Virus record (IMG/VR): IMGVR_UViG_3300031992_000012
Span: 1 to 64,000 of that record
From: a virus
Lineage: Duplodnaviria > Caudoviricetes
DNA length: 64,000 nt
Strand: one strand, 5' to 3'
Notes under the pieces: model-generated
Told to the model about the DNA's origin: nothing
What the model saw: only the letters and a program-made list of their open reading frames with translations
Databases searched by the model: none
Made by a program: the position numbers and the translations under genes
Part shown: one piece after another, positions 35,533 through 63,149 of the stretch
Layout: each line of letters begins with the position of its first letter
Numbering within the stretch: position 1 is the first letter of the stretch

Positions 35533-35566
35533 ACCCTTCCCGCGTAATAATTCATTAAGGAAGGGT
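35533..35566 (+). promoter_or_regulatory. YGYGTAATAAT motif copy 3, in the 18-nt loop of an 8-bp inverted repeat
   Basis: ACCCTTCC-CGCGTAATAATTCATTAA-GGAAGGGT. Confidence 0.65.
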
Positions 35567-35635
35567 TACCTAGCCCGCTCCCGCCCGGCTTTTACGCCGG
35601 GCTTTTCATTTCGTTACATCACAGGAGGCAAAAAC

Positions 35636-35812
35636 ATGTTTTTCATCATCGACCTTTTCCTGGCGGTAATCGCCGCCCTGTCCGAACCCGCCCCGCAGCC
35701 GGCGCCGCCAATCCAGGAGGAGCATATATGGGTTGAGAGGCGCATGGAGATGCGGCATCACGACCATCTGATACGAACGCCGACGATAAGCGGCGACGCA
35801 GTTAAACGCTGA
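35636..35812 (+). CDS. 58-aa protein with a hydrophobic N-terminus (not in the ORF track)
   Basis: AGGAGG RBS; MFFIIDLFLAVIAALSEPAPQPAPP...; followed by a terminator at 35818-35852. Confidence 0.6.
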   Translation: MFFIIDLFLAVIAALSEPAPQPAPPIQEEHIWVERRMEMRHHDHLIRTPTISGDAVKR

Positions 35813-35879
35813 AGAAGCGCCCGGGTCTTCATCCGAAAGACCCGGGCTTTTTGTTGTCGATTTTTAACAAGGAGAAACG

Positions 35880-36632
35880 ATGGGTCATTTCATGGAAACC
35901 GACGGGCTCACGAAGCTGCCCGTCTACCCCGGCGACGACGTGCATATGTTCATTGGCTACTACGACAAAGGGGACGACGGAAAGAAAGCGCTGAACCCGC
36001 TGCTTGTTATGGAGACCTGGGAGCCCCGTGACTGGGCGGCCAGCATAGAGGTTCTCAGGGGCGAGTACGATTCCTACGGCTGGCTTGAGGGTGTCGAACG
36101 GATAGCCAAAGAAAGCGGAACGTCATTCGAGACGGTGTTCTTCCGTCATTCGACCGTGCTCTGGGCGCGCAGGCTTTACGCCAACCGCAAGGACGACATG
36201 TCGGACTACTGGAGGAAGAAGGAGCTCGAGGACAGGACGGAGCTTCGCGCCACCATGTCCGAATGGGACAAGGAGCTTGGCGACCTCTATTGGAACCACG
36301 GGCGCAACGCCGCCAACTACGCAATCGACATGTACTGCCGCAAGGACCCCGGCAAGTTCGGCGCCGACCATATGGAGTTCTTCTCCATGTTCATGAACGG
36401 GCTGTCGTCGAAGGACGTGTACTGGTCGGTGCTGAACCATCTTGCCGGTCATGTATACCGGAAGATAATAGTGCCGGTATTCTACGCCGCCAAGGCGTGC
36501 AGGACGTCCATCTGGCCCAACCCCTACGGCGACCAGGATGGATTCGACATCACCGAAAACAGGAAGCTGGCAAAGTTCACGCTCGGTCAGGCGGAAGCAA
36601 TAATAAAGGAGCGCAGGAAGCGCTTGAAGTAA
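35880..36632 (+). CDS. Hypothetical protein
   Basis: AAGGAG RBS; 250 aa. Confidence 0.7.
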   Translation: MGHFMETDGLTKLPVYPGDDVHMFIGYYDKGDDGKKALNPLLVMETWEPRDWAASIEVLRGEYDSYGWLEGVERIAKESGTSFETVFFRHSTVLWARRLYANRKDDMSDYWRKKELEDRTELRATMSEWDKELGDLYWNHGRNAANYAIDMYCRKDPGKFGADHMEFFSMFMNGLSSKDVYWSVLNHLAGHVYRKIIVPVFYAAKACRTSIWPNPYGDQDGFDITENRKLAKFTLGQAEAIIKERRKRLK

Positions 36633-36654
36633 CAACAACCAATGGAGAAAACAG

Positions 36655-37236
36655 ATGAAAAAGACAGAAACCAAGAAAGAAACAGTAAAGAAGCCGAAGG
36701 CCGCAAGCCTCACCCTCTCACTGGTTCCCAACAAGATGATGCGGGCAACGCTGTCATGCAAGACGGTGCAGGAGCGCATTGCCCGCGTGATGCTGGACAA
36801 GGCGAACGAGACAACAGCCGGCCTACCAGGAGCCCTTGTCAATTCCGAGCTTTTCGAGGCGGCCGTCGCTTGGTGGGAAGGCGGAAAGGAAAGCGGGGCG
36901 TACCCGCTGTTCCAGGCCCTTTCCGACAGTGTCCCTGGTCTGGTGGCCATGCCAGTCGATACAGCCGACGGCGAAGACACCGCCGTCATCGTGGCCCTTC
37001 CTGACGACTTTTTCCCGGTCGACATGTGGCTGGCAATGTTCCTTATGAAGGAGCAGGGCATACACAAGGGCTATTCGCTTTATCGTAGCAGACAGGCGGT
37101 CAAGGTAGGGCAAGGGCGCTTCGGTGTCCTTAACCGGAACTACCATGTCGTAAGATTTACGGACAAGAAGATGGACGACGCGTGGACCAAGGTCAACCCT
37201 GTCTTCACTATTTCTCCGGAAGCGCTGAAACACTGA
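36655..37236 (+). CDS. Hypothetical protein
   Basis: GGAG RBS; codon usage typical of this genome. Confidence 0.65.
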   Translation: MKKTETKKETVKKPKAASLTLSLVPNKMMRATLSCKTVQERIARVMLDKANETTAGLPGALVNSELFEAAVAWWEGGKESGAYPLFQALSDSVPGLVAMPVDTADGEDTAVIVALPDDFFPVDMWLAMFLMKEQGIHKGYSLYRSRQAVKVGQGRFGVLNRNYHVVRFTDKKMDDAWTKVNPVFTISPEALKH

Positions 37237-37242
37237 TTGTTT

Positions 37243-37253
37243 TGCGTAATAAT
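37243..37253 (+). promoter_or_regulatory. YGYGTAATAAT motif copy 4, upstream of the ncRNA/tRNA unit
   Basis: TGCGTAATAAT followed by a hairpin at 37261-37307. Confidence 0.6.
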
Positions 37254-37323
37254 TAATTGAAAGGACGGCCGTAGCACTGAAACAATGAAGTGCCATACAC
37301 CGTCCTTTCTTAGCGCATTGATT

Positions 37324-37871
37324 TCCTATGACCAAGACCATTGGCGATGATACGTATGGCGTTTCCATTTCTGGATAGCCACAGGGACAGTAACCCTGCG
37401 TTCTCGCTGCTGGAGGAGGTGGCCTAGCGGCTCCCGTGTGGATCTGGGGTCCCTTTCAGGGAGTTCCAAGTAGCGGGGTGACAGGAAGGTGTCGTCGTGA
37501 CAGGACGGCAGAATCCGTGCGTGAAGCTTCACATGTACTTTGCCGTCTCGGCACCGTGTCCGGCATGTGGAGGCTATCAGGACGATGGACGAGCCAAGGA
37601 CTCAGGCATTGTGTGCGCTATGCGCCACTATACCCTCGCTTGGGTGCGAGGGGTCGGTATCCATTCCGGCGTGCCTTCCTGGGTTATCTGAAAGGTCCTA
37701 TCGGAACCGGTTGGTCGCGGGCATTGTAGGCTGCGTGTCCGCGCCTGGAAACCACTGGTGGTTAAAAGAGAGTACGTTTGGCGTCCATAGGAGGGCGGCC
37801 GGTTTGTCTGGCCGCTGACGTCACCGCCAGGGGCGGCAAAAACCTACAGCCGGGGAGTCGTGCACCCTGGC
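37324..37871 (+). ncRNA. Candidate large ornate structured ncRNA (~550 nt; ROOL/GOLLD-like context)
   Basis: No credible ORF; five nested long-range helices, many local hairpins and a potential pseudoknot; abuts a tRNA. Confidence 0.65.
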
Positions 37872-37876
37872 ATTTC

Positions 37877-37949
37877 GTCCGGGTAGCATAATGGATAATG
37901 CATCTGATTTCTAATCAGACGATTGCGGGTTCGAGTCCCGCCCCGGACA
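37877..37949 (+). tRNA. tRNA-Arg(UCU); CCA not encoded
   Basis: Acceptor GTCCGGG/CCCGGAC, D-arm GCAT/ATGC, anticodon arm TCTGA-TTTCTAA-TCAGA, T-arm GCGGG-TTCGAGT-CCCGC. Confidence 0.95.
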
Positions 37950-38049
37950 TCTGTTTGTTTTGTAAATGGAAGGCGGGTCTGCGTGAGCGGCCGCCTCGCC
38001 TTCCGGGTTTTTCCTTAGGCCGCAAAGTTTTTGTAAGGAGGCTAGTAAC

Positions 38050-38901
38050 ATGTACCTTAAACTCCACGTTGAGCGTGAAATCTCCAGTGCGGAACTGGAG
38101 GCATTTACAAAGATTCTACCCTTTCTCAAGAAGGGCATTGACACGGGCGAGCTGACGTTGTCCGACAACTCGGAACCGGTCAGGACACTTGAACTCCCAG
38201 AGGCCAAGATTGTCCCGGCGACAGCCGAGATTCGGCTGAAACCTGTCCGCAAGCCACACCGTCCTTGGCGTGTTCGCGTCGACCAGGCCATTCGGGCCTG
38301 CAAAGAATTCCGCGAAGGGAAATTCGCGGAAAACGTCGACATGATGCTTGAGACCTTTGCTTGGCAGGTCTCCGACATGGCCGAGTGGGTGCCATACACC
38401 CGCGAGGAAATAGCCGATGCACTGGTAATCGACAAGAGCGACGTTGACCCTCTGATGAAGACCTTCTACAGGGTTCTGAACCGCTCGTCCGCTCTAGCAA
38501 CCAACTGCTTCATGCTTCCGCCAACGCTGGCCGAGGCCGTCAAGAAGGAGGAGGCCAATACGGCGGAACGGGAGGCCCAGAACAAGGAGCAGACGGGTGA
38601 CGAGCACATCGGGTTTGAGCAGAACACAAAGAGAGCCATCACCGAGTCCCTGATGAAACTCGATTGGGATTCCCCGGACAGGTACGAGATGAAAATCTCT
38701 GACTTCCTGTTGTGGGGCAAGGTGAAGGACGCCAACAACATCAACGTCATCCGGAGTTTCATGCCTATCGCCCGGGGCATGAAATTGAGCATTCAACGTC
38801 TCCGTGCAGAGCGGGACTCCAAGAACAGAATCGTGGGAATCTACGCGTTCCCGCCGCCACGAAACGGAGCGTTCTGGAAGAGCGCGAAGAAAGTGGAATA
38901 A
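38050..38901 (+). CDS. Hypothetical protein
   Basis: AAGGAGG RBS; 283 aa. Confidence 0.7.
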   Translation: MYLKLHVEREISSAELEAFTKILPFLKKGIDTGELTLSDNSEPVRTLELPEAKIVPATAEIRLKPVRKPHRPWRVRVDQAIRACKEFREGKFAENVDMMLETFAWQVSDMAEWVPYTREEIADALVIDKSDVDPLMKTFYRVLNRSSALATNCFMLPPTLAEAVKKEEANTAEREAQNKEQTGDEHIGFEQNTKRAITESLMKLDWDSPDRYEMKISDFLLWGKVKDANNINVIRSFMPIARGMKLSIQRLRAERDSKNRIVGIYAFPPPRNGAFWKSAKKVE

Positions 38902-39082
38902 TTTGCAATTTGATAGTGGCGGGAGGAGAAACAACGCTTATATTAATTAGCGTTGTCTTCGCCCCGCCTCCATTTTTTGGGGGAGGAAAACTACTAACAA
39001 ACACAACGGCAAAGCATGTCCGTCCGCATCTCACGGGAGGTGCGGGAAGTGGCCCAAGACGGCCTCGCGTGCTCTTTTTTAG

Positions 39083-42000
39083 ATGGAAGAAATCAGATTC
39101 TTTAGGAAGCGGTCCGGCCGTCTCGTGAACTTCAAACTGCAGAAGATTGCGGACGCGGTCGGGAAAGCCCTCGTCGAGGCGTGCGCAGCGTCGGGGAAGT
39201 CATTGGATGTCAAGGCCGTTTCCACGGCAATCGCCGAAAAGGTAAGGGCGTTGCTGGATGACAAGGACTCGCAGTTTTTCGTTCAGCCGGACAGGATGGG
39301 TTCGCGGGTCCCCCATCTGGAAGGCGTGCAGGACGCGGTTGTCAGCGTCCTCAAATCATCGCATGAAGATATAGAGGGGTATGACGCGAACATGGCCGAG
39401 CTCACGGGCCGTCTGTACGCCGACTACCGGAAGAAGAGGGACGAGGCCAGGAAGCAGCTCAAAGTCCGCAGCAGCAAGGACAACGCCGATGTGACTGACA
39501 AGGCCCTTCTCCTTGGGGACAGCAAGAACGTCCTCAACGGGTGGGACCGCGAGCGCATAGTCTCCGATCTCAAGGAGCACAACGTCGACGACGAAATAGC
39601 CGAGAAGGTCGCAAAGGAGACAGAAAGCGCTCTCCTGAAGACCGGCCTGTCTAGTGTGTCGTCCGACCTTGTCTCCGAATTGGTGAACAGTGTCATGGCC
39701 GACAACGGTCTTCCCATAAGACTCGCCGCCGGGAAGGGATACATAGTCGACAAGGATTTCGTCGAAGGGCTTATCAAGGAGAAGTCCGTAGAGAACAGCA
39801 ACATCGTCGGCAACAACCCTGAAGCGGTGGCCTTTGACATTGCCAGCAACGTTTTCAAGCAATACGCCCTTGACAACGTTTTCTCGAAGGACATCGGGGA
39901 AGCTCATATGAGGGGAGCAATACACCTTCATGATTTAAACTTTGTCATACGTGGCTACTGTGGTTCCCACAGCATCGAATACATCAAGAAGTGGGGGCTG
40001 AAGGGTCTGGTAAACCTGAACACGGAAAGCAAGCCTGCCAAGACCGCATCGGTCCTGACCGGCCATCTGAACACGTTCCTGGCTTCCATGCAGGCTTACT
40101 ACGCCGGAGCGCTGGGCCTGGGGTATCTTAACGTCCTCTATGCTCCGTTGATGACGGGAATGGACGACAAACAAATGCACCAGGTGGCTCAGGAACTTGT
40201 GTTCAACGGTTCTCAGAATGCGTTCAGCCGTGGTGGTCAATCACTGCATCCTTCCGAACCTATATGGATTAAAAAGGATGGTAGATATAAGAGTGTCCTT
40301 ATTGGTGAGTTTATCGACGAATATCTTGCCAGAAGGGCAGAGGCTGTTGAGAAGCGAGACGAATACGAGCTGCTCCAAACAGGAGACGAGGGTATCGAAA
40401 CAATAAGCTTCGACGGCCTAAGCGGAAAGGTACTGGACAAGACGGTTACTTTCCTTGCACGCATGCCTCATAAAGGCAAGATGTACCGTATTCACACGTC
40501 TAACGGAATTGTCAATGTTACAGGTGACCACTCGGTGTTCACTTTCCGGGGAAAGCAGGACATAGCTGATGTAAAAGCCAAGGACCTTAAGAGGGGCGAT
40601 TTTGTAGTCATACCCCACAGAGTTCCCCTCAAGGAGGAGAAGACAACAGTAAATGTTGTCGATTACGTTCCTGAGAAATGGCTATCGGTTAGTGGCTTTG
40701 AAAATTTCCTGTCCAAGGTGTCAGCTAAGGGCACCCCGGCAAAGGTCCTCGAGGAAGTCGGAGCTACCCGCTTTATCTTGAAAGATGGAAAGAAGACAAA
40801 CAAAGTAAGGATTTCCTTGGCTAAACATTTTGTTGATGTCAGGAATAGCGTTTTGTGTCTGAAGGGTGATAGCCAGTCGTTGTTGCCCGCAGAGATTCCT
40901 CTGACACGGGAGCTGGGCTATATAGCCGGTATGTTCTGCGCGGAGGGGTATAAAACTCTTAAGAAGGTTCTTATCAGCAATACTGATATAAAGCTTCTGG
41001 AGAAGGTACGGTCATGTCTGGATAAAATAGGGTACTCAGGATATTCCTATTACAACGGCATGATGCACGGAATGACGACGGACCATATAGAAATAGGCGG
41101 TGTTTTCGGGGCTTTCCTGCAATCTTCGTGTACATCCGGAAAGAAGACAAAAGTAGTTCCGGATTGGTTGTTCAACGCACCAATGGTTTGTCGTGAGGGG
41201 TTCCTTGATGGTTTCTTCGACGGTGAAGGCTCCAATAGGAAAGACTGCCCGGACGAATGGAGCGTCTCCAACACAAGCACACGGGTAGTGGCCGGTATAA
41301 GCTTGCTTTTACTGAACTACGGTAGAGAAACATATGTTTACGAAACCAAGCATGACAATGGCTGGTCTGACGTATATGAAGTCCGGGAAGCGCAGCGCAG
41401 AAAGGTCAATCCGTTTGACGAGTACACAACGGAAGAAGGGTTCCGCACATACAGCAAGCATCTGTCAAAGGATGTCAGGGATGCCGTGGAATGGCTCATA
41501 GAGTCAGACTTGTCGGTGTCTATCATCAAACGCATTGAGGAATACGATTATGATGGTCCTGTCTATGACATAAGCGTCCCAGGCACAGAGGCTTTCCTTG
41601 GTGGAACAGGGAATGTGTTTTTGCACAATACGCTTTTCATTGACTTCAATGTCCACAGCGGCGTCCCGTCGTATCTGAAGGATGTCCCCGCTATTGGACC
41701 TGGCGGAAAGTACATGGTTCAGGTCTTCCACTGCGGCGAACCCTTCATCAAGGAGCTCACCGAAGTCAAGGACGAGAAGACAGGCGACTGGGACCTCTAC
41801 CTTGACTGGGGCAACGAACATCCTGTCCGCATGCTTCATGAACACGACGGAAAGCAGGTGTTCGAGAACGAAAACACCGAGCGCCATGTCATGCGCTACG
41901 GCGACTACGCCGAGGATACCGCCCGTTTCGCCGAGGCGTTGCTCGACGTCTGGAAGGAAGGCGACGCCAATGGCCATGTTTTCGAGTTCCCCAAGTGCGA

Positions 42001-44113
42001 CTTCCATGTCTCCTCCGAGACATTCACGGACGCCCGCCAGTACCAGGTGTTCAGGAAGGCCTGCGAAGTGGCGAGTCACAATGGTTCGACCTACTTCGTG
42101 TTCGACCGCGATTCCGTGTCTTTGGCGAGTTGCTGCTTCACAGGAGACACCAGGATTCTTATTGGCGAGGACCGCGACCCGTCGCTTACATGTTTCCGCG
42201 ACGCCTATGACAAGTACGGAATCCACAACAGGACAATCCGTGTATACGACAGGGGCTCGTGGAGGAAGGCGAAGGTAATCCGCCTTTCCGGCAAGAACCG
42301 CCGAATGCTGTCGGTGAATCTGGCCTGCGGTAAGCACGTCTGCGTCACCGCCGACCATGAGTTCCCGACAACGCGCGGAGTGCTCAAGGCCTACGAGCTT
42401 ACCCCCGACGACGCAGTCCTGCTGTCCAGCAGCATGGCCGAAGGGCATCGCCGGTGCGAGGGAAAGGACAAGGCGCAGGTCTACGGAATCATAGCAGGCG
42501 CCTACCTGCTGTCCGGGCATTGCACCTCCACAGGCAAGACGATAGTCGTTGGAAACAGCCTTCCCGGCCTTGAAAACACGTTCTCGGAGACAATGAACAG
42601 CGCGCTTGAATCGGCAGGTTTCGACAAAGGCGTGTGCATGGTCGAGGAGGACGGCAACCGTCAAATGTGGGTCGTCACTAATCCTGAAATCCTCAACGGC
42701 GTTGAAAAATTGCTCAAGCGGACGGAGAACGGCGTATTCCTGTCCGATGCCATATATCGTGAGAGCCCGGCTGCCAGGGCCGCTGTCCTTATAGGACTCC
42801 TCGCGGCCTCCGCCGTCGAGTGCGAAGTGACTCCCGGCAGGATGGAGCTTCTTCTGGAGCAGATTGAGGCTATGGCCACGACCATCGGCGTAATCTGCAA
42901 AAAGCGAGTCGACGGGGATGACGTGTGCTTCTCCTTCGCCCCCGCAAGCATTGGGATGGAGGGCGAGACCATCGTCAAGGACGGTGAGAGCTATCTCAAG
43001 GTCCTGTCGGTAAAGGAAGTGCTGGAGCCCGAATGGGTCTACTGCTTCACTATGCTCGACACCAAGGACCCGTTCTTCACGCTGCCAAACGGTATCGTCA
43101 CGCACAACTGTCGATTGAAAGTGCAGATAACTGATATGTCGCTGTTGCAACATCCTGAAAGACTGAGAACACTAGGCTTTCAGAATGTCACAATAAACAT
43201 CCCTCAGTGCGCATACCGCGCCAAGCACAGGTACGACAGGGAAGGGGAAGGAAACATTGACAAGCTCAATGAATTCTTCCTTGCCGAAATCGACAGTATG
43301 ATGGACATATGCAAGGCCGCCCATCTCCAGAAGAAGGCGTTCGTCGAGACGCTGATGCGTCCCGGAGCGCCCATGTGGCAGATGGCCAAACCGTCCAACG
43401 ACGGCAATCCGTATCTCGACCTGAACACGGCCGTGTACATAATCGGCATGATTGGCCTCAACGACGCCGTCCACTATCTGACCGGAGAGGAGATGCACGA
43501 GTCCGACGCCGCCATGGACTACGCCCTCAACGTGATGACTCACATGTACCTGCGCTCCAAGGAATACACCAAGGAGACAGGCCTGACGTTCAAGCTCGAG
43601 GAAAGCCCGGCTGAATCGGCGGCTCGCCGTCTGGCGAAGGCCGACCTCGCCCTTTACAGGGAGGACGCGCTCAAGGTGTTCAAAGGCACCGAGGACGCCG
43701 CCTACTATACGAATTCCATACATCTGTCGGCCGACGCGCCGGTGGACATAGTGGAGCGTATCAGGAAGCAGTCGATGTTCCATAGCATCATCGAGAGCGG
43801 GGCGATTATTCATGTCTTCCTGGGCGAGTCCCGCCCCACGTCCGGAGCCATAGAGGAGCTTATACGCAATGTGTTCCTGCGTACCCAGTGCGCCCAGCTT
43901 GTCTTCAGCCCGGAGTTCACCTACTGCAACGAGTGCGGAAGGGAACAGGCCGGATTGAAGGACACATGCGATCAATGTGGTTCTTCTAACGTAATAGGTA
44001 TAACACGCGTTGTAGGTTACTACTCTGTCGTGCAGAATTGGAACAAGAGCAAGCGTTATGGCGAGCTCAAGGCACGCCAGCGCGGCAACTACAACGTGGA
44101 GGAGGCGAAATGA
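39083..44113 (+). CDS. nrdD: Anaerobic (class III) ribonucleotide reductase with N-terminal ATP-cone(s) and two inteins
   Basis: KRSGRLVNF..KIADAV (ATP cone), IHLHDL..YC, SRGGQ|T, SC|CRL, EESPAES, YYTNS, CNEC..CDQC and RVVGYY glycyl-radical motif. Confidence 0.95.
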   Translation: MEEIRFFRKRSGRLVNFKLQKIADAVGKALVEACAASGKSLDVKAVSTAIAEKVRALLDDKDSQFFVQPDRMGSRVPHLEGVQDAVVSVLKSSHEDIEGYDANMAELTGRLYADYRKKRDEARKQLKVRSSKDNADVTDKALLLGDSKNVLNGWDRERIVSDLKEHNVDDEIAEKVAKETESALLKTGLSSVSSDLVSELVNSVMADNGLPIRLAAGKGYIVDKDFVEGLIKEKSVENSNIVGNNPEAVAFDIASNVFKQYALDNVFSKDIGEAHMRGAIHLHDLNFVIRGYCGSHSIEYIKKWGLKGLVNLNTESKPAKTASVLTGHLNTFLASMQAYYAGALGLGYLNVLYAPLMTGMDDKQMHQVAQELVFNGSQNAFSRGGQSLHPSEPIWIKKDGRYKSVLIGEFIDEYLARRAEAVEKRDEYELLQTGDEGIETISFDGLSGKVLDKTVTFLARMPHKGKMYRIHTSNGIVNVTGDHSVFTFRGKQDIADVKAKDLKRGDFVVIPHRVPLKEEKTTVNVVDYVPEKWLSVSGFENFLSKVSAKGTPAKVLEEVGATRFILKDGKKTNKVRISLAKHFVDVRNSVLCLKGDSQSLLPAEIPLTRELGYIAGMFCAEGYKTLKKVLISNTDIKLLEKVRSCLDKIGYSGYSYYNGMMHGMTTDHIEIGGVFGAFLQSSCTSGKKTKVVPDWLFNAPMVCREGFLDGFFDGEGSNRKDCPDEWSVSNTSTRVVAGISLLLLNYGRETYVYETKHDNGWSDVYEVREAQRRKVNPFDEYTTEEGFRTYSKHLSKDVRDAVEWLIESDLSVSIIKRIEEYDYDGPVYDISVPGTEAFLGGTGNVFLHNTLFIDFNVHSGVPSYLKDVPAIGPGGKYMVQVFHCGEPFIKELTEVKDEKTGDWDLYLDWGNEHPVRMLHEHDGKQVFENENTERHVMRYGDYAEDTARFAEALLDVWKEGDANGHVFEFPKCDFHVSSETFTDARQYQVFRKACEVASHNGSTYFVFDRDSVSLASCCFTGDTRILIGEDRDPSLTCFRDAYDKYGIHNRTIRVYDRGSWRKAKVIRLSGKNRRMLSVNLACGKHVCVTADHEFPTTRGVLKAYELTPDDAVLLSSSMAEGHRRCEGKDKAQVYGIIAGAYLLSGHCTSTGKTIVVGNSLPGLENTFSETMNSALESAGFDKGVCMVEEDGNRQMWVVTNPEILNGVEKLLKRTENGVFLSDAIYRESPAARAAVLIGLLAASAVECEVTPGRMELLLEQIEAMATTIGVICKKRVDGDDVCFSFAPASIGMEGETIVKDGESYLKVLSVKEVLEPEWVYCFTMLDTKDPFFTLPNGIVTHNCRLKVQITDMSLLQHPERLRTLGFQNVTINIPQCAYRAKHRYDREGEGNIDKLNEFFLAEIDSMMDICKAAHLQKKAFVETLMRPGAPMWQMAKPSNDGNPYLDLNTAVYIIGMIGLNDAVHYLTGEEMHESDAAMDYALNVMTHMYLRSKEYTKETGLTFKLEESPAESAARRLAKADLALYREDALKVFKGTEDAAYYTNSIHLSADAPVDIVERIRKQSMFHSIIESGAIIHVFLGESRPTSGAIEELIRNVFLRTQCAQLVFSPEFTYCNECGREQAGLKDTCDQCGSSNVIGITRVVGYYSVVQNWNKSKRYGELKARQRGNYNVEEAK
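40241..41629 (+). mobile_element. Intein in NrdD (463 aa, LAGLIDADG)
   Basis: RGGQ|SLHPSE...VTGDH...YIAGMFCAEG...FLDGFFDGEG...VYDISV...FLHN|TLF. Confidence 0.92.
42134..43108 (+). mobile_element. Intein in NrdD between the paired active-site cysteines (325 aa, degenerate endonuclease)
   Basis: ASC|CFTGDT...VTADH...VYCF...VTHN|CRL; the LAGLIDADG-like helices lack their acidic residues. Confidence 0.9.
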
Positions 44114-44469
44114 TAAAGGCTGTCGTTTTCGGCAAGGGGCACGGCTGCTCCAAGTGCGACGCCCTAAAGCGCCGTCTCCATGTGTTTCTTTCACAGGACA
44201 AGTACAAGGACATACAGCTTGTCTTTAACGACGTCCTGACAGAGGCCGGCCTTAGGGAGTTCCTGAAGGCCGAGGTCCTGAACCCAAACCGGATACCAGC
44301 CCTTCTGATGGCCGACGACAACGGCTATATGACGGACACCCGGTGCATAGACGACTACGCGATGTCTGCCACGCCGGGAATTCTCGGTGTACAGACCGAC
44401 TACAACAAGGGGGGCGGAATCCTGCCTCCTCCCGTGATTCAAGAATTGCTCGACACTGCGTTGGGCTAG
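44110..44469 (+). CDS. Thioredoxin/glutaredoxin-like CxxC protein (NrdH-like partner of NrdD)
   Basis: VVFGKGHGCSKC..., RIPAL cis-Pro motif; ATGA-coupled to nrdD. Confidence 0.75.
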   Translation: MIKAVVFGKGHGCSKCDALKRRLHVFLSQDKYKDIQLVFNDVLTEAGLREFLKAEVLNPNRIPALLMADDNGYMTDTRCIDDYAMSATPGILGVQTDYNKGGGILPPPVIQELLDTALG

Positions 44470-44590
44470 TCTGGCCAAGGCCCGGGGGAGACCCCGGGCC
44501 GTAAAGCAAAAGGAGGAATAAAATGTTTGGTTTTGTTCTAGTATTGGCGATTTTCTGCTCGGCCATGGGGTCGGTATATCGGAAGCCGAA

Positions 44591-44818
44591 ATGACACAAG
44601 AGGAATACAACAGTTTGCAGCCTAATGCACGCGTCAGGCTCGACGTGGACCTGGTGATGCTTCCCGGAAAAGTCGTACCGTCCAGGCACTACGGAACCCC
44701 CGGATTCTGCTGGTGGGTAGTGGTTGTCAAGGAAGGGCGCGGGGAGTACCATTACATGCCCGCAGGCGTCGAGACATTTCTGCGCGATGTTGAACTGTTC
44801 AGGGAACCGGAGGACTAA
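44591..44818 (+). CDS. Hypothetical protein
   Basis: Short ORF, TAATG-coupled to the next one. Confidence 0.5.
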   Translation: MTQEEYNSLQPNARVRLDVDLVMLPGKVVPSRHYGTPGFCWWVVVVKEGRGEYHYMPAGVETFLRDVELFREPED

Positions 44819-45063
44819 TGAAGACTTTCAGAGCGTTGTGCATGTCGATGACCGCTTTGTGGTTCATCGTAGGTTTCGGGGAGCTGATGGAGCATCTGCG
44901 TTCGGTCACGGACGCCGAGGCCGGGTCCGACGCCATGCGCGCGCTGGACATGCTGGACAGCATAGGCCTGGCCTTCCTGTCGGTCCTGTTCGTGGCCTCC
45001 CTGGCGTATCTTTTCAGTTGTGTTGAGAACTCTGTAAAAAAAGGGAAAAATGGAAGAGCTTGA
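44818..45063 (+). CDS. Small two-TM protein
   Basis: Two hydrophobic segments; GGAGG RBS. Confidence 0.55.
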   Translation: MKTFRALCMSMTALWFIVGFGELMEHLRSVTDAEAGSDAMRALDMLDSIGLAFLSVLFVASLAYLFSCVENSVKKGKNGRA

Positions 45064-45427
45064 TATTCTACGTAACGCAATCTCCGCGCTGGACGACATA
45101 GCCCGTACGCCGGAGATACCGTTTTCCGCGTATTTCACCCATCTGAAGCGGGACCTTGCCTCCCACTTCTGGAGCGAGTACATGACGCGGAGATGTGTGA
45201 AGAAGGTGATGGCCCCTGCCGAGCTCACATCGCTGGTATCCACGGAGGACCCGCGCTATGCCGAACTGTCGGCTATTGTCGACCAGATTCTGGCAGGGTA
45301 CACCCCGGCGGCATACGCCACGGGTTCGCGTCCCCTTATCGGCGGCATACAGGTCTGGGAGCCCGATTCCCTGACGGAGGAAAACCTTAAGGTCATGGAC
45401 TCCTATCTGGAGGATTTGCTGAAATGA
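45050..45427 (+). CDS. Hypothetical protein
   Basis: Coupled ORF. Confidence 0.6.
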   Translation: MEELDILRNAISALDDIARTPEIPFSAYFTHLKRDLASHFWSEYMTRRCVKKVMAPAELTSLVSTEDPRYAELSAIVDQILAGYTPAAYATGSRPLIGGIQVWEPDSLTEENLKVMDSYLEDLLK

Positions 45428-45547
45428 AGAGGCTTCTGAGAAAACTCCGCGAATGGCTGGCGAAGATTCTCGCGCCCTGGGGCGAGGGGGTCAGCACCGG
45501 CAAGGGGATCAAGACCTTCATGGTTGAAGTCGACTGCGGAGGAAACG

Positions 45548-45919
45548 ATGGAAAGGAAAACGCCGGAGAAGCTGGGGTTCGCCCAGGGGACTGACGGACG
45601 CTGGACCAGGAGACGCGGCACGATGACCACCGAGCTGTCGTTCACGCCAGACGGAGTAAAGGTCAAGGTGACCGTCCCTTTGAGGGCCCTCGTGGGTTCC
45701 GTGTGCGAAGTCAAGGTGCTCGCGCCGGATATTGAGGAAGGGATCGCTGCAGTGCAGGTCGAGCTTGGTTTGCTGGCCTCCAGGCTCGAGGACGAGTTAA
45801 GGACGGCCAGGGGAGTATTGCGGAATGACATAAACATGGAGGCAATAGATGTGGTTGACCGTAAAGCAAGTGCTGGCGAAGGTGACACTGTCGGCATCGG
45901 CGGCCCGACGTCGACTTGA
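45548..45919 (+). CDS. Hypothetical protein
   Basis: GGAGG before ATG45548. Confidence 0.55.
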   Translation: MERKTPEKLGFAQGTDGRWTRRRGTMTTELSFTPDGVKVKVTVPLRALVGSVCEVKVLAPDIEEGIAAVQVELGLLASRLEDELRTARGVLRNDINMEAIDVVDRKASAGEGDTVGIGGPTST

Positions 45920-46427
45920 GAAGTTCGCCACCAATGAAAGAAGGACGACCGGGATGTACGCCGAGAAGGAATACGACATCCCCGACGTATGCCTGGACGA
46001 TTTGTTCAACCCCCAGCTAGTGATTAAGCCGGAGGGTACGATGACCGTGTTGCAGTTGGCTGACAAGTTCAGTCTTTCGCTCCCGACGATACGCCGTCGT
46101 CTGGAGGGCGCCGGAATAAAGCCCGTCGCCAGGATACGCAATGGCAGGCAGAGCGTGTATGTCCTTACGGAGGAGGTGAGGTTGGCCATAGGCAACCCGC
46201 CGCCGGAAAAGCCTAGAAAGAAGTACGAGTCGCCTCCGGTCATGGACGAGGAGGAGACGGAGCTGGTGCGCGAGGAGCGCATCAAGAAGACATGGGTCGG
46301 ACGGCAGGGCTATTTCCTTGTCGAAGGACGCAGGCTTGTCACGGGCACGATAACCCATGTGTCCATGATGGGATGCTACATAGGCAAGCAGCTTGGCACT
46401 ATGGAGTCCCTGCATTTGATTAAATGA
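45849..46427 (+). CDS. Putative DNA-binding protein with two HTH-like repeats
   Basis: LTVKQVLAKVTLSASAARRRLE and MTVLQLADKFSLSLPTIRRRLE; GGAGG RBS. Confidence 0.6.
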   Translation: MWLTVKQVLAKVTLSASAARRRLEKFATNERRTTGMYAEKEYDIPDVCLDDLFNPQLVIKPEGTMTVLQLADKFSLSLPTIRRRLEGAGIKPVARIRNGRQSVYVLTEEVRLAIGNPPPEKPRKKYESPPVMDEEETELVREERIKKTWVGRQGYFLVEGRRLVTGTITHVSMMGCYIGKQLGTMESLHLIK

Positions 46428-46451
46428 CCGCTTCTAAAAGAAGGGTCAAAA

Positions 46452-46462
46452 TGCGTAATAAT
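46452..46462 (+). promoter_or_regulatory. YGYGTAATAAT motif copy 5
   Basis: TGCGTAATAAT followed by hairpin TGTGGAGG/CCTCCACA. Confidence 0.6.
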
Positions 46463-46528
46463 TAGGTGTGGAGGAACAATAGCCTCCACAATCGATCGAT
46501 TCTTAACTGTTAAAAAAGGAGGCCCCTG

Positions 46529-47626
46529 ATGAAGGAATTTTTGGAGAACCTGTTCACGAAGCTGAACTACCCGTACGAGGTAGTCTCGGTGCGTGACCCG
46601 GCGATACTGGAAAGATTGACTGACTCCGCCTTGCGCGGAACCGGCGATTGGTACAAGGTGTTGGTCGATACCAACAACACAATCGTCCACCTGTACATCG
46701 CTTTCACTGATGATGTGAACGGGCAGGGAGACGGTGTCTGCATCGTCACCGAAAACATGTATGGAGAAGGTTCGTTCATCCAGCTCTCGAAGGAAGGAGT
46801 CGAGAAGTGGCTGAAGGATTTTGTGGAGAAGCTGGACGTCCTCTACGAAAAATACTTCAACGACGAAGAATTCGCCGAGACTTTCGAGCCGACCGGGGAG
46901 GATAAGTCCCGCGACGAAGAGCAGGCCGTTCCCGCCCCCGAGGAACCGGAGGAGGTCACGGATTCGGAGGCGGACTCCGACGACGATGATGATGAAGATG
47001 ACGATGATGACGACGAGTCATATGAGGACGAAGACGACGAATCAGACGAAGACGACGAGTCTGACGACGACTCCGACGATGAGGAGGACGACGAAGACGA
47101 TGACGAAGACGACGAGTCTCTTCCAGAGGAAGACGAAGACGACGAGGAAGAGTCGCCGAATCCGCCAAAAGCGGAAGAACCCCGTGCCAAGGTAACCACT
47201 CCGAAAGCCGGCGCTCCAGCTCCATTCTCCGTCGACGTCCCGCCGACGGTTGTCCCGTTCTCCGTCGACGCCCAGCCTCCAAAGGCTTCGGCGCCGCTCG
47301 GCAATGCCGGCCCTTCCACATCGAAGATGCCGGTCGTCCCGTCCCCTGACCCTCGCGTAGCATTCATCCACGGTTTGAAGAAAGCAATCGTGGATATCGG
47401 CTTCCCCGGATACAACAAATACAACTGGGCGTCAACCGACACCGACGGAATCATTGAGTTCTCCCCGATTCCGCCGGCCACCATCTGTGAGACTCCGCGA
47501 ATCGGCCTGACGTTGTATTTCAACAACGGCAAGTGGTCCGCCAATCTCGCCGTCGGCGGCGACCACTACAAGTCCACCGGTCCCACGCTCGCCAATGTGC
47601 GCGAGGACTATTGTTCCCTGTTATAA
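46529..47626 (+). CDS. Protein with a long Asp/Glu tract and a Pro-rich linker
   Basis: ~60-residue stretch that is almost pure D/E; AGGAGG RBS. Confidence 0.7.
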   Translation: MKEFLENLFTKLNYPYEVVSVRDPAILERLTDSALRGTGDWYKVLVDTNNTIVHLYIAFTDDVNGQGDGVCIVTENMYGEGSFIQLSKEGVEKWLKDFVEKLDVLYEKYFNDEEFAETFEPTGEDKSRDEEQAVPAPEEPEEVTDSEADSDDDDDEDDDDDDESYEDEDDESDEDDESDDDSDDEEDDEDDDEDDESLPEEDEDDEEESPNPPKAEEPRAKVTTPKAGAPAPFSVDVPPTVVPFSVDAQPPKASAPLGNAGPSTSKMPVVPSPDPRVAFIHGLKKAIVDIGFPGYNKYNWASTDTDGIIEFSPIPPATICETPRIGLTLYFNNGKWSANLAVGGDHYKSTGPTLANVREDYCSLL

Positions 47627-47717
47627 CCAAATGTCTAGTCCCAGAAGCAAAAGTAGGTCCGGCCGCCTAACGAATGCGATGGGTTTGTTGCAACAAAAAA
47701 AGAAAAGGAAAAAGAAA

Positions 47718-54562: not shown

Positions 54563-54565
54563 CAC

Positions 54566-55777: not shown

Positions 55778-55790
55778 AGGAGAAACATTT

Positions 55791-57208: not shown

Positions 57209-57290
57209 TCCCTACAGGATTTACCACAGCTCGGAGGAGGAGACCGGGCCTTCGGGCCCGGCCCCTTCTCCTGATTTAGCAGGTAGAAAC

Positions 57291-59079: not shown

Positions 59080-59080
59080 G

Positions 59081-59500: not shown

Positions 59501-59522
59501 GAACATTGGAGGGCAATCCAAA

Positions 59523-59969: not shown

Positions 59970-60373
59970 TGAGCAATCCGCCTCCCTTAAGAAACATGCG
60001 ACAACTCGAGCTGGAGGAGGAGATGCACCGGCTGGTGCGTGCCCTTCCAAAGCGGGTTGTCAAACGCGCGATATTCGACATTCTTGGAGTTGCCGCCTTC
60101 GGGGGTTCCATCAACAATTGCCGGATACTTGATATGACCAGGAGGGAAGACGCCGTGTGGCTGATACACAAGTTCAGCGGCATGAGCAGGGCGAACAGGA
60201 GATGGAGCATACAGATGCTTCTGTACACGATGCGAAAGGGCGTGTGGCTGTTCCTCACCCAGGGGCTCGGAGGCCAGGAGCATATCTACCACGGACAGGC
60301 TACAATGGACAGCAAGACGCTAAGGTCGTTTTGCTCGCTTCTAAGACAGAAACTTAAAGAACAGGAGGCATAA
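59966..60373 (+). CDS. Member of the tandem paralogue family
   Basis: SIQMLLYTMRKGVWLF. Confidence 0.55.
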   Translation: MMSNPPPLRNMRQLELEEEMHRLVRALPKRVVKRAIFDILGVAAFGGSINNCRILDMTRREDAVWLIHKFSGMSRANRRWSIQMLLYTMRKGVWLFLTQGLGGQEHIYHGQATMDSKTLRSFCSLLRQKLKEQEA

Positions 60374-61474
60374 ATGAGCGAAAGAAAACTATGCTACAAA
60401 GTCTTGATTGACGAAATAACCCCGATTCCCGAATCGGACAACCTTGAGCTGGCGCGAATAACCGGCTGGCGATGCGTTGTGCAGAAGGGAGAGTTCAAGG
60501 TCGGCGACACTGCCTTGTACTTTGAAATCGACAGCGCGCTTAACCCGCACGACGACCGGTTCGCCTTCCTGAAGGAGCGTTGCTACAAGAAGTTCCTGGA
60601 CGCCTCGAAGAACCTGTTCGACGAGTGCATCCGCATACGTACCATCAAGCTGCGCGGCCAGTTGTCGCAAGGCCTGCTGATTCCGGTCAAGGACTTCTGC
60701 GAAGTGCGCAACAAGAAAATCGGCGAAAGCTGCGCCGACGTCCTCTGCGTCCGCCACTACGACGAAGTGGCGGAACGCGCCGTCCGCGAGACAACGCCGT
60801 TCATCGCCCCCAACCAGAAGGGACTGTTCCCTGCCTGGGCGGGTCCGAAGACTGACGAAGAGCGTGTGCAGAACCTTACGGACCAGGACCTTGACGAACA
60901 CTGGGACGACGAGCTGGAAGTCACGGAGAAGATTGACGGCACCTCGATGACCGTCGCCTACTCCGCCGTCAACCGCCCCGACGACCCGGTTGCCGTCTGC
61001 AGCCGCAACTTCGAGCTGAAGGACATGCCGAGCGCCTACTGGGACATGGTGCATGAGCTGAACCTCGACGTCAAGTTGAAGGAGTGGTGCGAGACGCACG
61101 GAACCGAAATAACAATACAGGGCGAGCTCAACGGCCAGGGCATCCAGAACAACCGCGATTGCAAGCCGGGGCGCAGCTTCGACGTGTTCCGTATCTGGAA
61201 CATCACGGAGGGCCGCTGGATTCCGCCGAGCGAACGCTACGTAATTGTGAAGGAACTCGGTCTGAACCACGTCCCGGTTCTCGAGACACGCCGTATCAGC
61301 AGCTTCGACGACGGCTCGCGCGACTTCGTGAAGGTCCGCGACGCCATCCTGTCGTACGCCGAAGGCAAGACCGCCAACGGGAACGAGCGGGAAGGCATCG
61401 TGTTAAAGGAGCTGAACGGCAACGGCTTCAGCTTCAAGGCCGTGTCCAACGCGTATCTGCTTAAACTGAAATGA
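60374..61474 (+). CDS. ATP-dependent RNA ligase (DRB0094/Rnl5-like family)
   Basis: N-terminal OB-like PIPESDNLE..GW..VVQKGEF..YFEIDS; motif I EKIDGTS; QGEL, EGIV and FKAVSN. Confidence 0.9.
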   Translation: MSERKLCYKVLIDEITPIPESDNLELARITGWRCVVQKGEFKVGDTALYFEIDSALNPHDDRFAFLKERCYKKFLDASKNLFDECIRIRTIKLRGQLSQGLLIPVKDFCEVRNKKIGESCADVLCVRHYDEVAERAVRETTPFIAPNQKGLFPAWAGPKTDEERVQNLTDQDLDEHWDDELEVTEKIDGTSMTVAYSAVNRPDDPVAVCSRNFELKDMPSAYWDMVHELNLDVKLKEWCETHGTEITIQGELNGQGIQNNRDCKPGRSFDVFRIWNITEGRWIPPSERYVIVKELGLNHVPVLETRRISSFDDGSRDFVKVRDAILSYAEGKTANGNEREGIVLKELNGNGFSFKAVSNAYLLKLK

Positions 61475-62226
61475 AAGACGAACCCGGATGCGCGTTCCTG
61501 CTGGTACCCGCGTTTCTGCTGTACATAACCATCGTCTGCGTCGGCAGCTCGAACCCTGTGCTTGACGCTGTGTTCGTGTCGTGCGTTGTGACGATGTTTG
61601 TAAACGCGGTCCGGGTTCTCATGACAGACAGCGAGGATGGCAGAATGACCGAAAGGGAAGCTGCAAGAACCTATGTCGCCGCCCCGGCGGAGACTGCGGA
61701 GGAGCCGGCGGAGACAGCCGAGAACGCATCGGAAACCGTGACATCGACCTCGGGCGCCACGCCCGACCACATGGTGTTCACGGCCGGCCCCGACGAGAGG
61801 ATGCTCGAGGAGAACGCCATAAAGGAGAGGCTCAAGACGATGTCCCCCGAGGACACCGCCGAGCTGATCCGCGACGTCATTTGGGGGTTTGCCGAGAGGA
61901 TGCCAAATACCGTCGGCAGCGGTGACGACATACAGGTGCTGTTCGTTCGCGGGCAGCCTGTGGACAAGTCGGTTTTGACCGACGGCCGGATGACTCATGA
62001 TGATCTGGTAGACGTAGTCAAAGCTGTGCGCGATCCAGCCTGCGTGTGCGTCGTAAGAAGCGACCACTTCACATTCTCCGTGGACGATGACCTGACTTCC
62101 TCCGGATGGCAGGACGTGGTCATAGAATGGCTGTCCGGCGCGTACCGCGATCACCAGAAGAAAATAGCCCTTCTGAAAAAACTCGGATTGATAGTTCCAA
62201 GCTGGATTTCACATGGAGACGAATAA
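61471..62226 (+). CDS. Membrane-anchored hypothetical protein
   Basis: Two N-terminal hydrophobic segments. Confidence 0.6.
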   Translation: MKDEPGCAFLLVPAFLLYITIVCVGSSNPVLDAVFVSCVVTMFVNAVRVLMTDSEDGRMTEREAARTYVAAPAETAEEPAETAENASETVTSTSGATPDHMVFTAGPDERMLEENAIKERLKTMSPEDTAELIRDVIWGFAERMPNTVGSGDDIQVLFVRGQPVDKSVLTDGRMTHDDLVDVVKAVRDPACVCVVRSDHFTFSVDDDLTSSGWQDVVIEWLSGAYRDHQKKIALLKKLGLIVPSWISHGDE

Positions 62227-62878
62227 CAGGATAAAGACGACGACGGCCTTGTTGCTGTTCGTACTTCAGATTTTTGTCGGATGGTATCTTGTGTATTCGG
62301 TCGGCTTCGGGATTCCCGGTCGAATCTACACCGGAGTCGTGATGACTGGCATGTCCCTGCAGTTTTTACTGTTAATCGCACCTGGGGCGAACCTGGTGTC
62401 GGCGGTGAAGAGCTACTGGAAGGTGCCTGAATGTAAAAGGCATGGATGGGCGCCCGATGAAGTAATCATCTACGTCTACAACACGAAGCTGCCTTTAAAC
62501 CTGGACATAAAGAGCCGGTACAGTACCATCGTCCCGTTGTACGCGCTGACGGACAAGCTCATAAAGCAGACCGACAAAATTGAGCTCAGGCTTCTAATCC
62601 ATGCCTGCAGGCATGGGGAGGGTCTTGGCCTGCTTGTCGGACACGGCATGAAGCCAGTCGCTTGCGTGCCCAACTGTGGGTTCGAGTACATAGGATGGTA
62701 TCGGGACATGGAACTGAACCCGAGTTTTGAACCCGTATTGGCGGGCGTAAGAACATGGTTGTACCGTGAGAAGCCGGATCTTGTGCCATGGCCCGTGTTC
62801 AGAAGGCAGCTCGAAAGTGAAGCCAGGGAGTACCTGAAATACTATGACAAGCACCATTGGACGAAATGTTCTACGTAA
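62213..62878 (+). CDS. Two-TM protein with a C-terminal domain resembling the paralogue family
   Basis: ELRLLIHACRHGEGLGLL. Confidence 0.55.
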   Translation: METNNRIKTTTALLLFVLQIFVGWYLVYSVGFGIPGRIYTGVVMTGMSLQFLLLIAPGANLVSAVKSYWKVPECKRHGWAPDEVIIYVYNTKLPLNLDIKSRYSTIVPLYALTDKLIKQTDKIELRLLIHACRHGEGLGLLVGHGMKPVACVPNCGFEYIGWYRDMELNPSFEPVLAGVRTWLYREKPDLVPWPVFRRQLESEAREYLKYYDKHHWTKCST

Positions 62879-63089
62879 GGTCGTAAGGCCTATACTTGTT
62901 CGTCTGCTGGAGAGGATAGACCGGGACGCGCCCGCAAAGAAACGGACGTGCACCGAGCATGTCGATCCCCTTCCTGTGGACACCGAAAGCCTCGAGCCGA
63001 TTGCACGCGCTTCCGAATGGAGGCCCGGCGTGCCCGAGAAGCTAAGCCACGCCTGGATGGTCCAGACTGAACAGGCAAAACGCAAATGA
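62844..63089 (+). CDS. Small hypothetical protein
   Basis: Overlapping ORF that ends just before the promoter motif. Confidence 0.4.
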   Translation: MTSTIGRNVLRKVVRPILVRLLERIDRDAPAKKRTCTEHVDPLPVDTESLEPIARASEWRPGVPEKLSHAWMVQTEQAKRK

Positions 63090-63109
63090 CTTCGATTAGT
63101 TGTTAAAAA

Positions 63110-63149
63110 GAACATCCCCGCGCGTAATAATATTGTAACGGGGATGTTC
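63110..63149 (+). promoter_or_regulatory. YGYGTAATAAT motif copy 6, in the 18-nt loop of an 11-bp inverted repeat
   Basis: GAACATCCCCG-CGCGTAATAATATTGTAA-CGGGGATGTTC. Confidence 0.65.

Follow-up and report, generated by a model that had tools for sequence, protein, structure and literature searches.

Putative sigma-type promoter cassettes with embedded stem-loops before non-structural genes and RNA genes of a giant rumen phage

We analyzed the first 64 kb (the window) of IMG/VR virus record IMGVR_UViG_3300031992_000012 (Duplodnaviria; Caudoviricetes), a record of 205,081 bp that is classed as linear and estimated to be 94% complete. A short motif, YGYGTAATAAT, recurs between the genes of this phage and is probably the core of 10-12 sigma-type promoters that head non-structural operons and RNA-gene arrays, with a phage holoenzyme as the most likely reader and with the hairpins around the motif as structures of read-through RNA.

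All six intergenic copies reported in the window by the initial annotation were found at their positions on the + strand. No match was present on the - strand, and the chance expectation was a mean of 0.06 copies in the window (maximum 1; 100 dinucleotide shuffles). The bias persisted over the whole 205,081-bp record, in which the pattern matched seven times on the + strand (the seventh copy at 153519) and never on the - strand; the reversed control pattern had no match in the whole record. Moreover, 10 of the 12 + strand copies of the core GTAATAAT were intergenic (with 25 nt added, intergenic DNA amounts to about 9% of the record), and GTAATAAT was the most enriched intergenic 8-mer, T/A runs aside. 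No second conserved promoter motif emerged from the 8-mer enrichment analysis of 94 intergenic regions, which returned only ribosome sites and T/A runs. Among the matches listed in a literature search for the motif strings, none of the text excerpts dealt with phage promoters.

To extend the set of sites, a position-weight matrix was built from nine seed sites, namely the seven motif copies and two further GTAATAAT sites, all of which score high by construction. Sites are numbered hereafter by the position of the G of GTAATAAT. On the + strand of the 205 kb, the matrix found 10 sites at 20 bits or more and 12 sites at 8 bits or more; on the - strand of the 205 kb, no site reached 8 bits. The non-seed sites recovered were 92542 (34.2 bits, GTAAGAAT) and the two weak ones.

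Strong sites (+ strand, at least 20 bits): 4942, 20223, 35544, 37246, 46455, 63124, 71487, 83556, 92542, 153522
Weak sites (+ strand, at least 8 bits): 79957, 77068

Alignment of the sites revealed a second conserved element, C-T-n-A-A-A, which ended 14 nt before GYGTAATAAT in all ten strong sites and in which the T at -33 and the AAA at -31 to -29 were invariant. A T followed by a purine was found 4 nt past the motif, again in 10 strong sites out of 10, and this conserved purine was taken as the predicted start (+1). Counted from it, the upstream element lies at -34 to -29, the GYG at -16 to -14 and the A/T block at -13 to -6. A separate consensus scan also listed CTGAAA-17-AATAAT at 35523 and 37225, with a score of 9/12. 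As judged from the sequence, these elements, with a spacer of 16-17 bp, are arranged as in sigma-70-family promoters that have an extended -10. The six cassettes of the window, with the RNA locus headed by the fourth, are as follows:

4921..4955, + strand: promoter cassette 1, with CTGAAA, a spacer holding a small GC hairpin, CGTGTAATAAT and predicted start A 4955 (37.4 bits)
20202..20236, + strand: promoter cassette 2, with CTTAAA, 14 nt, CGCGTAATAAT and predicted start G 20236 (43.1 bits)
35523..35557, + strand: promoter cassette 3, with CTGAAA, CGCGTAATAAT and predicted start A 35557 (42.6 bits)
37225..37259, + strand: promoter cassette 4, with CTGAAA, TGCGTAATAAT and predicted start G 37259 (44.1 bits), heading a non-coding RNA and tRNA-Arg
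37259..37949, + strand: transcribed non-coding region (about 37259-37872), followed by tRNA-Arg(TCT) at 37877-37949
46434..46468, + strand: promoter cassette 5, with CTAAAA at the tip of an upstream hairpin, TGCGTAATAAT and predicted start G 46468 (36.0 bits)
63103..63137, + strand: promoter cassette 6, with TTAAAA, CGCGTAATAAT and predicted start A 63137 (37.6 bits)

The two-part pattern was also searched for in IMG/VR, where it matched 55 loci with one match apiece. These matches look like noise, because no contig carried several of them.

The cassettes are tightly packed against the genes that precede them. An upstream open reading frame (ORF) of at least 80 aa ended 4-35 nt before the G of GTAATAAT in nine of the ten strong sites. 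Its stop codon fell inside the -35-like element in three of the ten (4942, 35544 and 153522): the ORF upstream of cassette 1 ends at 4924, within the element, and the CTGAAA of cassette 3 contains the stop codon of ORF 33406-35526. At one site, 20223, coding sequence runs through the -35-like element, as the -35 element and spacer of cassette 2 lie within the end of ORF 19437-20219. The idea that the -35-like element is simply an upstream stop codon or a translation-coupled element was rejected, since exact coordinates place a stop codon there in only three of the ten sites. The in-frame TAA-TAA within the motif results from the fixed 21-nt spacing.

On the downstream side, a Shine-Dalgarno sequence, usually AAGGAGG, and a start codon were located at +53 to +94 in nine of the 12 sites, and at +202 in one. 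At sites 37246 and 153522, RNA genes take the place of the ribosome site and start codon. The suggestion that the motif heads blocks of non-structural genes or RNAs held wherever a function could be named; many of the downstream ORFs are unannotated. The nameable products comprised an RNA-repair nucleotidyltransferase, the RNA polymerase (RNAP), NrdD, NAD enzymes, an RNA ligase, and a non-coding RNA with tRNA-Arg.

The predicted starts coincided with a marked RNA-folding signal. Segments of 45 nt taken from the predicted start had a mean folding energy of -15.4 kcal/mol, versus -9.85 kcal/mol for 3000 random segments, and none of 20,000 resampled means of 12 segments was as low. The signal was maximal at shift 0, where 9 of the 12 segments had their first paired base at +4 or before and a dG of -8 or lower, versus only 0-5 of the 12 at shifts from -40 to +20 around the predicted start. 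In 10 of the 12 sites, the first paired base of the hairpin was at +1 to +4. At cassette 5, for example, the hairpin begins at +1 of the predicted transcript:

46468..46489, + strand: 5' hairpin GTGGAGG/CCTCCAC

RNA data consisted of the contigs of four runs over positions 33000-48000, among the pieces listed; assembled contigs cannot prove starts. At site 37246 (predicted start 37259), metatranscriptome runs of two studies yielded contigs at 37281-37854 (depth 13.5) and 37321-37852 (depth 64), and the RNA contigs next to these had depths of 2-5. At site 46455 (predicted start 46468), the first base of an RNA contig (46474-47146) falls 6 nt past the predicted start, and a DNA contig of another sample (45960-47010) spans the promoter. 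No RNA crossing promoter 37246 or 46455 was present among the pieces listed. At 35544, which was covered by one RNA run, RNA depth was about 0.6 on both sides and was uninformative.

The non-coding stretch 37259-37872 was abundant as RNA in the sheep-gut metatranscriptomes of two studies, and no Rfam family was found in it. The two contigs of this RNA were of equal length (574 nt) with a 40-nt offset on the reference, one of them having 20-22 unaligned letters at each end.

Taken together, the strand and intergenic specificity, the two-part geometry, the T-purine start step, the in-register 5' hairpin, the Shine-Dalgarno sequence and start codon at +53 to +94, and the RNA contig ends support well the initial reading of the motif as a promoter. 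Another way to read the same sites is that the motif is no promoter at all, and instead forms part of an RNA-level signal in the 3' UTR of the upstream gene, associated with processing or termination. Its position within 35 nt of the upstream stop codon (9 of the 10 strong sites), its AU-richness, its flanking hairpins and the terminator that often follows would all suit such a signal. We nevertheless consider it highly improbable: RNA abundance rises, rather than falls, past two sites, the two-part spacing fits promoter geometry, the -35-like element is kept even inside coding sequence (20223), and 21 of the 27 strong terminators listed have no motif before them.

Two of the promoters are enclosed in a stem. 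Both structures were exactly as first described, with identical 18-nt loops and unrelated stems:

35533..35566, + strand: 8-bp stem, ACCCTTCC (35533-35540) with GGAAGGGT (35559-35566), around an 18-nt loop (35541-35558)
63110..63149, + strand: 11-bp stem, GAACATCCCCG (63110-63120) with CGGGGATGTTC (63139-63149), around an 18-nt loop (63121-63138)

Both loops begin with CGCGTAATAAT and end with TAA, and span promoter positions -16 to +2. In the 35533 stem, the left arm thus lies at -24 to -17 and the right arm at +3 to +10; in the 63110 stem, the left arm lies at -27 to -17. Perfect stems of 8 bp or longer around loops of 14-22 nt numbered 37 in the record, versus 20-27 in five Markov controls. 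Eight of the 37 had 18-nt loops, and two of these eight were the motif sites, in the same register to the motif. When the flanks of the 12 sites were shuffled with their composition preserved, 0.05% of 4000 trials gave two or more sites whose stem reached 8 bp, and none of the 4000 gave a stem of that length in the exact register. Both bracketing stems are hence real and more than chance.

The two stems were also stable in folding calculations, both as RNA (-11.5 kcal/mol, z -2.67, for the 35533 stem; -19.9 kcal/mol, z -5.26, for the 63110 stem) and as DNA on both strands (-6.2 to -11.6 kcal/mol, z -2.4 to -5.3). The other four copies of the window, said to lack a closing stem, indeed had at most two consecutive Watson-Crick pairs from the loop in that register; looser bracketing stems do occur at two of them, 37246 (7 bp, 37-nt loop) and 4942 (6 bp, 37-nt loop), as well as at 83556 (5 bp, 20-nt loop). 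A bracketing stem in the exact register was found at only two of the 12 sites. Stem-loops over the upstream half of the promoter were significant too, at 46455 (z -3.75), 79957 (z -3.46) and 83556 (z -4.45). In total, a stem-loop in or beside the promoter was significant in five of the 12 sites, lying upstream of the start in these three and straddling it at 35544 and 63124, with a weaker case at 4942. A promoter-embedded stem-loop at variable positions is thus a trait of about half the family, of which the two bracketing stems are one variant.

The shared loop length and differing stems can be understood as stems closing tightly around a core (-16 to +2) that cannot change. As the left arms lie upstream of the start, the long stems require RNA that has entered from an upstream gene, and a structure in read-through RNA, one of the options raised at the outset, is the best fit to this geometry. 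In an RNA starting at 63137, the right arm can instead form a small 5' hairpin, GGGGA-TGT-TCCCC (63140-63152); an RNA born at the promoter of site 35544 folds into a small 5' hairpin and then the terminator.

The initial annotation had also raised the possibility, by analogy with phage N4, that the promoter is presented as a cruciform or single-stranded DNA hairpin. As a mechanism of recognition, we found no support for an N4-type hairpin promoter, since only two of the 12 sites have the stem and the loop is an AT-rich one of 18 nt. In its wider form, the DNA-level explanation holds that the inverted repeat extrudes as a cruciform or on single-stranded DNA and either presents the core, as in N4, or hides it (supercoil-dependent occlusion). 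Both strands of the repeats do fold as DNA, the loop corresponds to the region melted by a sigma holoenzyme plus the extended -10 element, and its AT-richness would favor opening. Moreover, N4 offers a precedent for promoter hairpins driven by supercoiling and resembles the present case in that inverted repeats flank a conserved block ending at the start and in that the phage may inject its own polymerase (excerpts of PMC4496689). According to the same excerpts, however, N4 hairpins are small, with a GC-rich heptamer at -11, and are found at every early promoter (all three), where a single-subunit enzyme makes contact with stem and loop bases and both gyrase and SSB are needed (PMC4496689). 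Here, in contrast, the stems share no sequence, the enzyme is multisubunit, and a feature present at only two of the 12 sites cannot be what is recognized. The single-subunit RNAP family PF00940 had no match in the record, but had none in 14 control genomes either. An 18-nt loop on an 8-bp stem would also be costly to extrude. Finally, an N4 hairpin placed in a sigma-70 promoter abolished its activity, again in the part of the source available (PMC4496689), so that a role at the DNA level would more likely be occlusion than activation. Overall, we regard a DNA-level role as very unlikely.

Under the preferred reading, the phage RNAP together with its sigma-like factor would initiate at the T-purine step. 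The new transcript would carry a stable 5' hairpin, often a full hairpin with a T run, followed by AAGGAGG and the start codon. The bracketing hairpin would be confined to RNA that comes in from the upstream operon; in other cassettes, equivalent stem-loops would cover the -35 element or occupy the spacer. By analogy with stem-loops known from T4-type phages, such a hairpin might block, attenuate or cap incoming transcripts, from which promoter-born transcripts would escape. Whether the bracketing stems serve for attenuation, as a 3' cap for upstream messages or for insulation is a guess.

The T4-type structures in question are the promoter-early stem-loop (PeSL) cassettes of phages RB49/phi1, PST and nt-1, whose stem-loops were interpreted, and in one case tested, as terminators or attenuators of incoming transcription (excerpts of PMC2839356 and PMC4122927). 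In the passages available, PeSL cassettes show the order stop codon, A/T-rich stretch, sigma-70-like -35/-10 boxes, Shine-Dalgarno and start codon, which is also the order here. Their stem-loop, with a G-run/C-run stem, lies between the boxes, over the -35 or over the -10, much as the stem-loop here varies in position, and in these passages they sit at joints between small accessory genes, as do the cassettes described here. Unlike the PeSL phages, the present phage is not T4-like and has its own multisubunit RNAP and sigma; it also differs in its consensus, in its number of cassettes (about 12, versus dozens) and in that a hairpin, often with a T run, is regularly found downstream of the start. 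PeSL is therefore the closest known kind, the likeness being one of design, not descent.

A joint beside one of the cassettes was seen in run X8, a diverged relative, which lacks 36616-37217 (602 bp, holding ORF 36655-37236). The downstream joint of this missing segment falls just short of site 37246, 7 nt ahead of its -35 element, and no cassette marks the other joint. Both joints carry the 9-nt direct repeat GGAAGCGCT.

Among the genes that could supply a reader for these promoters, the phage carries the following in the window:

27707..33334, + strand: RNAP gene, 1875 aa, beta fused to the N-terminal part of beta' (Pfam RNA_pol_Rpb2_6, 3.3e-34; Rpb1_2, 5.3e-19)

An ORF for the C-terminal part of beta' was found near 106 kb of the record. 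The record gave one match each to Rpb2_6, Rpb1_2 and Rpb1_5, corresponding to a single multisubunit RNAP set. In addition, a sigma-like ORF of 244 aa is located at 134861-135595 of the record, with a baseplate-wedge-like gene two genes downstream. It matched phrog_351, "RNA polymerase sigma factor" (3.2e-12), and, in a search against the PDB, 58 sequences at E values up to 1, nearly all of them sigma factors (best match, SigA regions 2-3, 4e-4). Against Pfam, sigma regions 2, 3 and 4 appeared in the correct order, at sub-threshold scores. BLASTP against Gp10 of Salmonella phage Arash gave 8e-10.

Arash (OQ632216) is the nearest cultured relative by RNAP, with about 30% amino-acid identity, and by sigma; the nearest cultured relatives of the phage are Arash and Vibrio jumbo phages. 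In the neighborhood of the sigma-like gene, a synteny comparison with Arash gave sigma itself as the sole match. Mass spectrometry of Arash virions detected RNAP beta with the most spectra, as well as beta' and the sigma factor, Gp10 (excerpts of PMC10585845), and the polymerase might likewise be delivered with the virion in the present phage. An analogous motif is present in the first 50 kb of Arash: GGTATAA(G)-6N-GTA occurs in 11 copies on the gene strand of the 18.5-50 kb block, where the genes are on the minus strand, and once on the other strand. It sits about 25-45 nt before the ribosome sites of non-structural genes, and all six TGGTATAA copies in the block are intergenic. The two phages thus share a sense-strand intergenic motif before non-structural genes. 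In contrast to the present motif, that of Arash has another sequence, no evident -35 and short leaders. The word "promoter" was absent from the main text of the Arash paper (PMC10585845).

A further comparison is offered by jumbo phages. Their virion-RNAP early promoters are described as highly conserved AT-rich stretches of about 10 nt, centered near -10, before early operons (excerpts of PMC7598289), and the AR9 promoter as AAATATATATTAT-6N-G, with the start at a fixed distance past the motif (excerpts of PMC5312081). As in the parts of these sources that treat phiKZ, AR9 and phiR1-37 (PMC7598289, PMC5312081), we observed an AT-rich block of about 10 nt near -10 with a predicted start about 6 nt later (here GTAATAAT, 5 nt and a purine), over-represented before early operons in a phage that encodes a cellular-type multisubunit RNAP. 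According to the same excerpts, phiKZ, AR9 and phiR1-37 have two RNAP sets with split subunits and a virion enzyme without a sigma-70-family factor. The present phage has one RNAP set, a beta/beta'-N fusion, a sigma-like protein and a -35-like element.

A -35-like element fits a sigma factor with region 4. Together with the RNAP, the sigma-like factor and the comparisons with Arash and the jumbo phages, this makes the phage multisubunit RNAP with the phage sigma-like factor a plausible reader of these promoters, and a likelier one than the host enzyme. The attribution of the motif to the phage RNAP in the initial annotation is accordingly plausible, given the single RNAP set and the sigma-like factor, while leaving room for a host primary-sigma holoenzyme.

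Several observations weigh against the interpretation put forward here. The RNA contig ends, 6 and 22 nt past two predicted starts, are a weak hint, as contigs cannot show starts. Packaging of RNAP in the virion is known only from Arash, at about 30% RNAP identity, and no bracketing stem longer than 6 bp was found at the Arash motifs. A search with the C-terminal part of the RNAP identified two IMG/VR loci at 42% identity and six JGI metagenome loci at 34-61%, and in none of these eight relatives (34-61% RNAP identity) was the motif present on the sense strand. The only other sample covering 35544 was identical there (0 other letters), leaving no compensatory changes to read. Neither bracketing stem precedes a T run, which, with an 18-nt loop that is poor for intrinsic termination, makes a terminator role of these stems doubtful.

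Moreover, at least 7 of the 12 cassettes have a hairpin with a T run, resembling an intrinsic terminator, past the predicted start and ahead of the ribosome site. This promoter-then-terminator order, found at 4942, 20223, 35544, 71487, 77068, 83556 and 153522 (+ strand), is not explained by a plain promoter model, since the terminator should also stop the promoter's own transcripts. In the window, the structures are:

4968..4999, + strand: terminator-like 14-bp hairpin with a T run, between the predicted start and the Shine-Dalgarno/ATG of ORF 5028
20259..20295, + strand: 13-bp hairpin and then a T-rich tail, between the predicted start and ATG 20327
35583..35602, + strand: intrinsic-terminator-like hairpin with TTTTCATTT, 26 nt past the predicted start and before a 58-aa ORF (35636-35812)

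Outside the window, terminator-like hairpins with T runs, past predicted starts and before ribosome sites, were seen at 71573-71597, 77085-77115, 83590-83633 and 153586-153605 of the record. At site 92542, a strong terminator abuts the -35 element.

These hairpins could be terminator-like 5' stabilizers, attenuators relieved by some factor, or the ends of small-RNA genes. Under one such reading, the cassettes would be small-RNA genes or regulated units like the PR'-tR' of lambda, giving a constitutive RNA of 40-110 nt, and the genes downstream would need a terminator-resistant or read-in polymerase. The frequency of the arrangement speaks for this, as about 0.2 cases are expected from the roughly 30 terminator-like sites on the + strand of the 205 kb, versus the seven or more observed, and two sites, 37246 and 153522, do head pure RNA genes. 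No antiterminator candidate was identified, however; the two sites supported by RNA are those without a strong T run, and the same hairpins may be explained as 5' stabilizers, given their first paired base at +1 to +4 in 10 of the 12 sites. We consider this reading of the cassettes unlikely.

A last point concerns the enzyme: the motif resembles a primary-sigma extended -10 promoter, so the host RNAP may read it. It is possible, as a tentative alternative, that host RNAP with the primary sigma uses these promoters, as it does T4-type early promoters, and that the phage RNAP and sigma serve another class. The geometry is of the sigma-70 type (CTGAAA-17-AATAAT), and the conserved G two bases before AATAAT occupies the place of the extended -10 TG. 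We take YGYG-n-AATAAT to be similar to the TRTG "-16 region" of Gram-positive promoters, and the strong AAGGAGG ribosome sites suggest a Gram-positive-type host. Furthermore, the beta/beta'-N gene belongs to an operon downstream of site 20223, and the sigma and beta'-C genes are in the late/structural part, a layout that would fit early expression of the phage RNAP by the host enzyme. Other features fit this alternative less well. The TTG that is usually the best-conserved part of a -35 is absent from the -35-like element, and the 10-11 nt block is nearly invariant across ten sites, which is tighter than host-type promoters usually show. Arash, whose host is Salmonella, uses its own non-consensus motif without an evident -35. 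Finally, TTGACA-16-TATAGT and TTGACA-16-GATATT are present separately, so that a canonical class seems distinct from the one described here.

These two near-consensus sites of host type sit in short gaps before the RNAP gene at 27707 (TTGACA-16-GATATT, 27599-27626) and before ORF 33406 (TTGACA-16-TATAGT, 33355-33382), respectively. Four of the 12 TTGACA-type matches on the + strand of the record were intergenic, versus about 9% expected, and the TTGACA-type sites may be a promoter class of host type.

As for its other content, the window has a GC content of about 55%, and nearly all its long ORFs are on the + strand. Most of its proteins had no match in PHROGs or Pfam, and those that could be named were non-structural: an RlaP-type nucleotidyltransferase (RNA repair), TibC-like glycosyltransferases, the RNAP, an intein-bearing NrdD, an NAD synthase, an NAPRTase and an RNA ligase. 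The tRNA-Arg(TCT) at 37877-37949 is the single tRNA of the window, and an Rfam scan of the window returned nothing beyond it. The sequence was present in gut metagenome runs of sheep, cattle and goat. A megablast search of 35000-47000 against phage records gave no match. Closer homologues of the RNAP, with 70-98% identity, occur in other assemblies; the RNAP homologues there ranged from about 1100 to 3250 aa, with varied intein and homing-endonuclease domains. Such domains also interrupt NrdD (39083-44113; intein/LAGLIDADG domains, Intein_splicing 8.6e-28), and the 706-aa ORF that follows the RNAP gene (33406-35526) has a LAGLIDADG domain as well. A tblastn search with this 706-aa ORF gave no match, and a separate search for related loci with the ORF gave none.

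Two repeats were noted in addition. The segment 46978-47116, within ORF 46529-47626, is an acidic low-complexity coding repeat (GAT/GAC/GAA runs) that draws contigs from many organisms, producing false joints and depth spikes of up to 2956. The longest perfect inverted repeat of the record (28 bp, 19-nt loop) is located at 153844-153918, about 300 nt past promoter 153522.

The present analysis does not overturn current understanding, because composite promoter/stem-loop cassettes are already known from T4-type phages. It provides a testable promoter consensus and predicted starts for an uncultured clade of giant rumen phages with a single cellular-type RNAP and a sigma-like factor of their own, and it splits about 95 kb of genes, most of them unannotated, into a dozen or so transcription units. 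Promoters are identified for two non-coding RNA loci, one of them abundant in sheep-gut metatranscriptomes, and two examples are added of a promoter core enclosed by a stem whose formation requires read-through RNA. A more specific idea, which is speculative and which we hold to be unlikely as it stands, is that these two cassettes are "self-insulating" promoters for the phage sigma-RNAP holoenzyme, whose structure is felt only by polymerases or RNAs coming from upstream, or whose DNA form turns the promoter off or on in response to supercoiling or to transcription passing through. If it were true, it would, together with the promoter-then-terminator order at seven other cassettes, suggest that the little-studied Arash-like phages have an operon-insulation or antitermination logic of their own.

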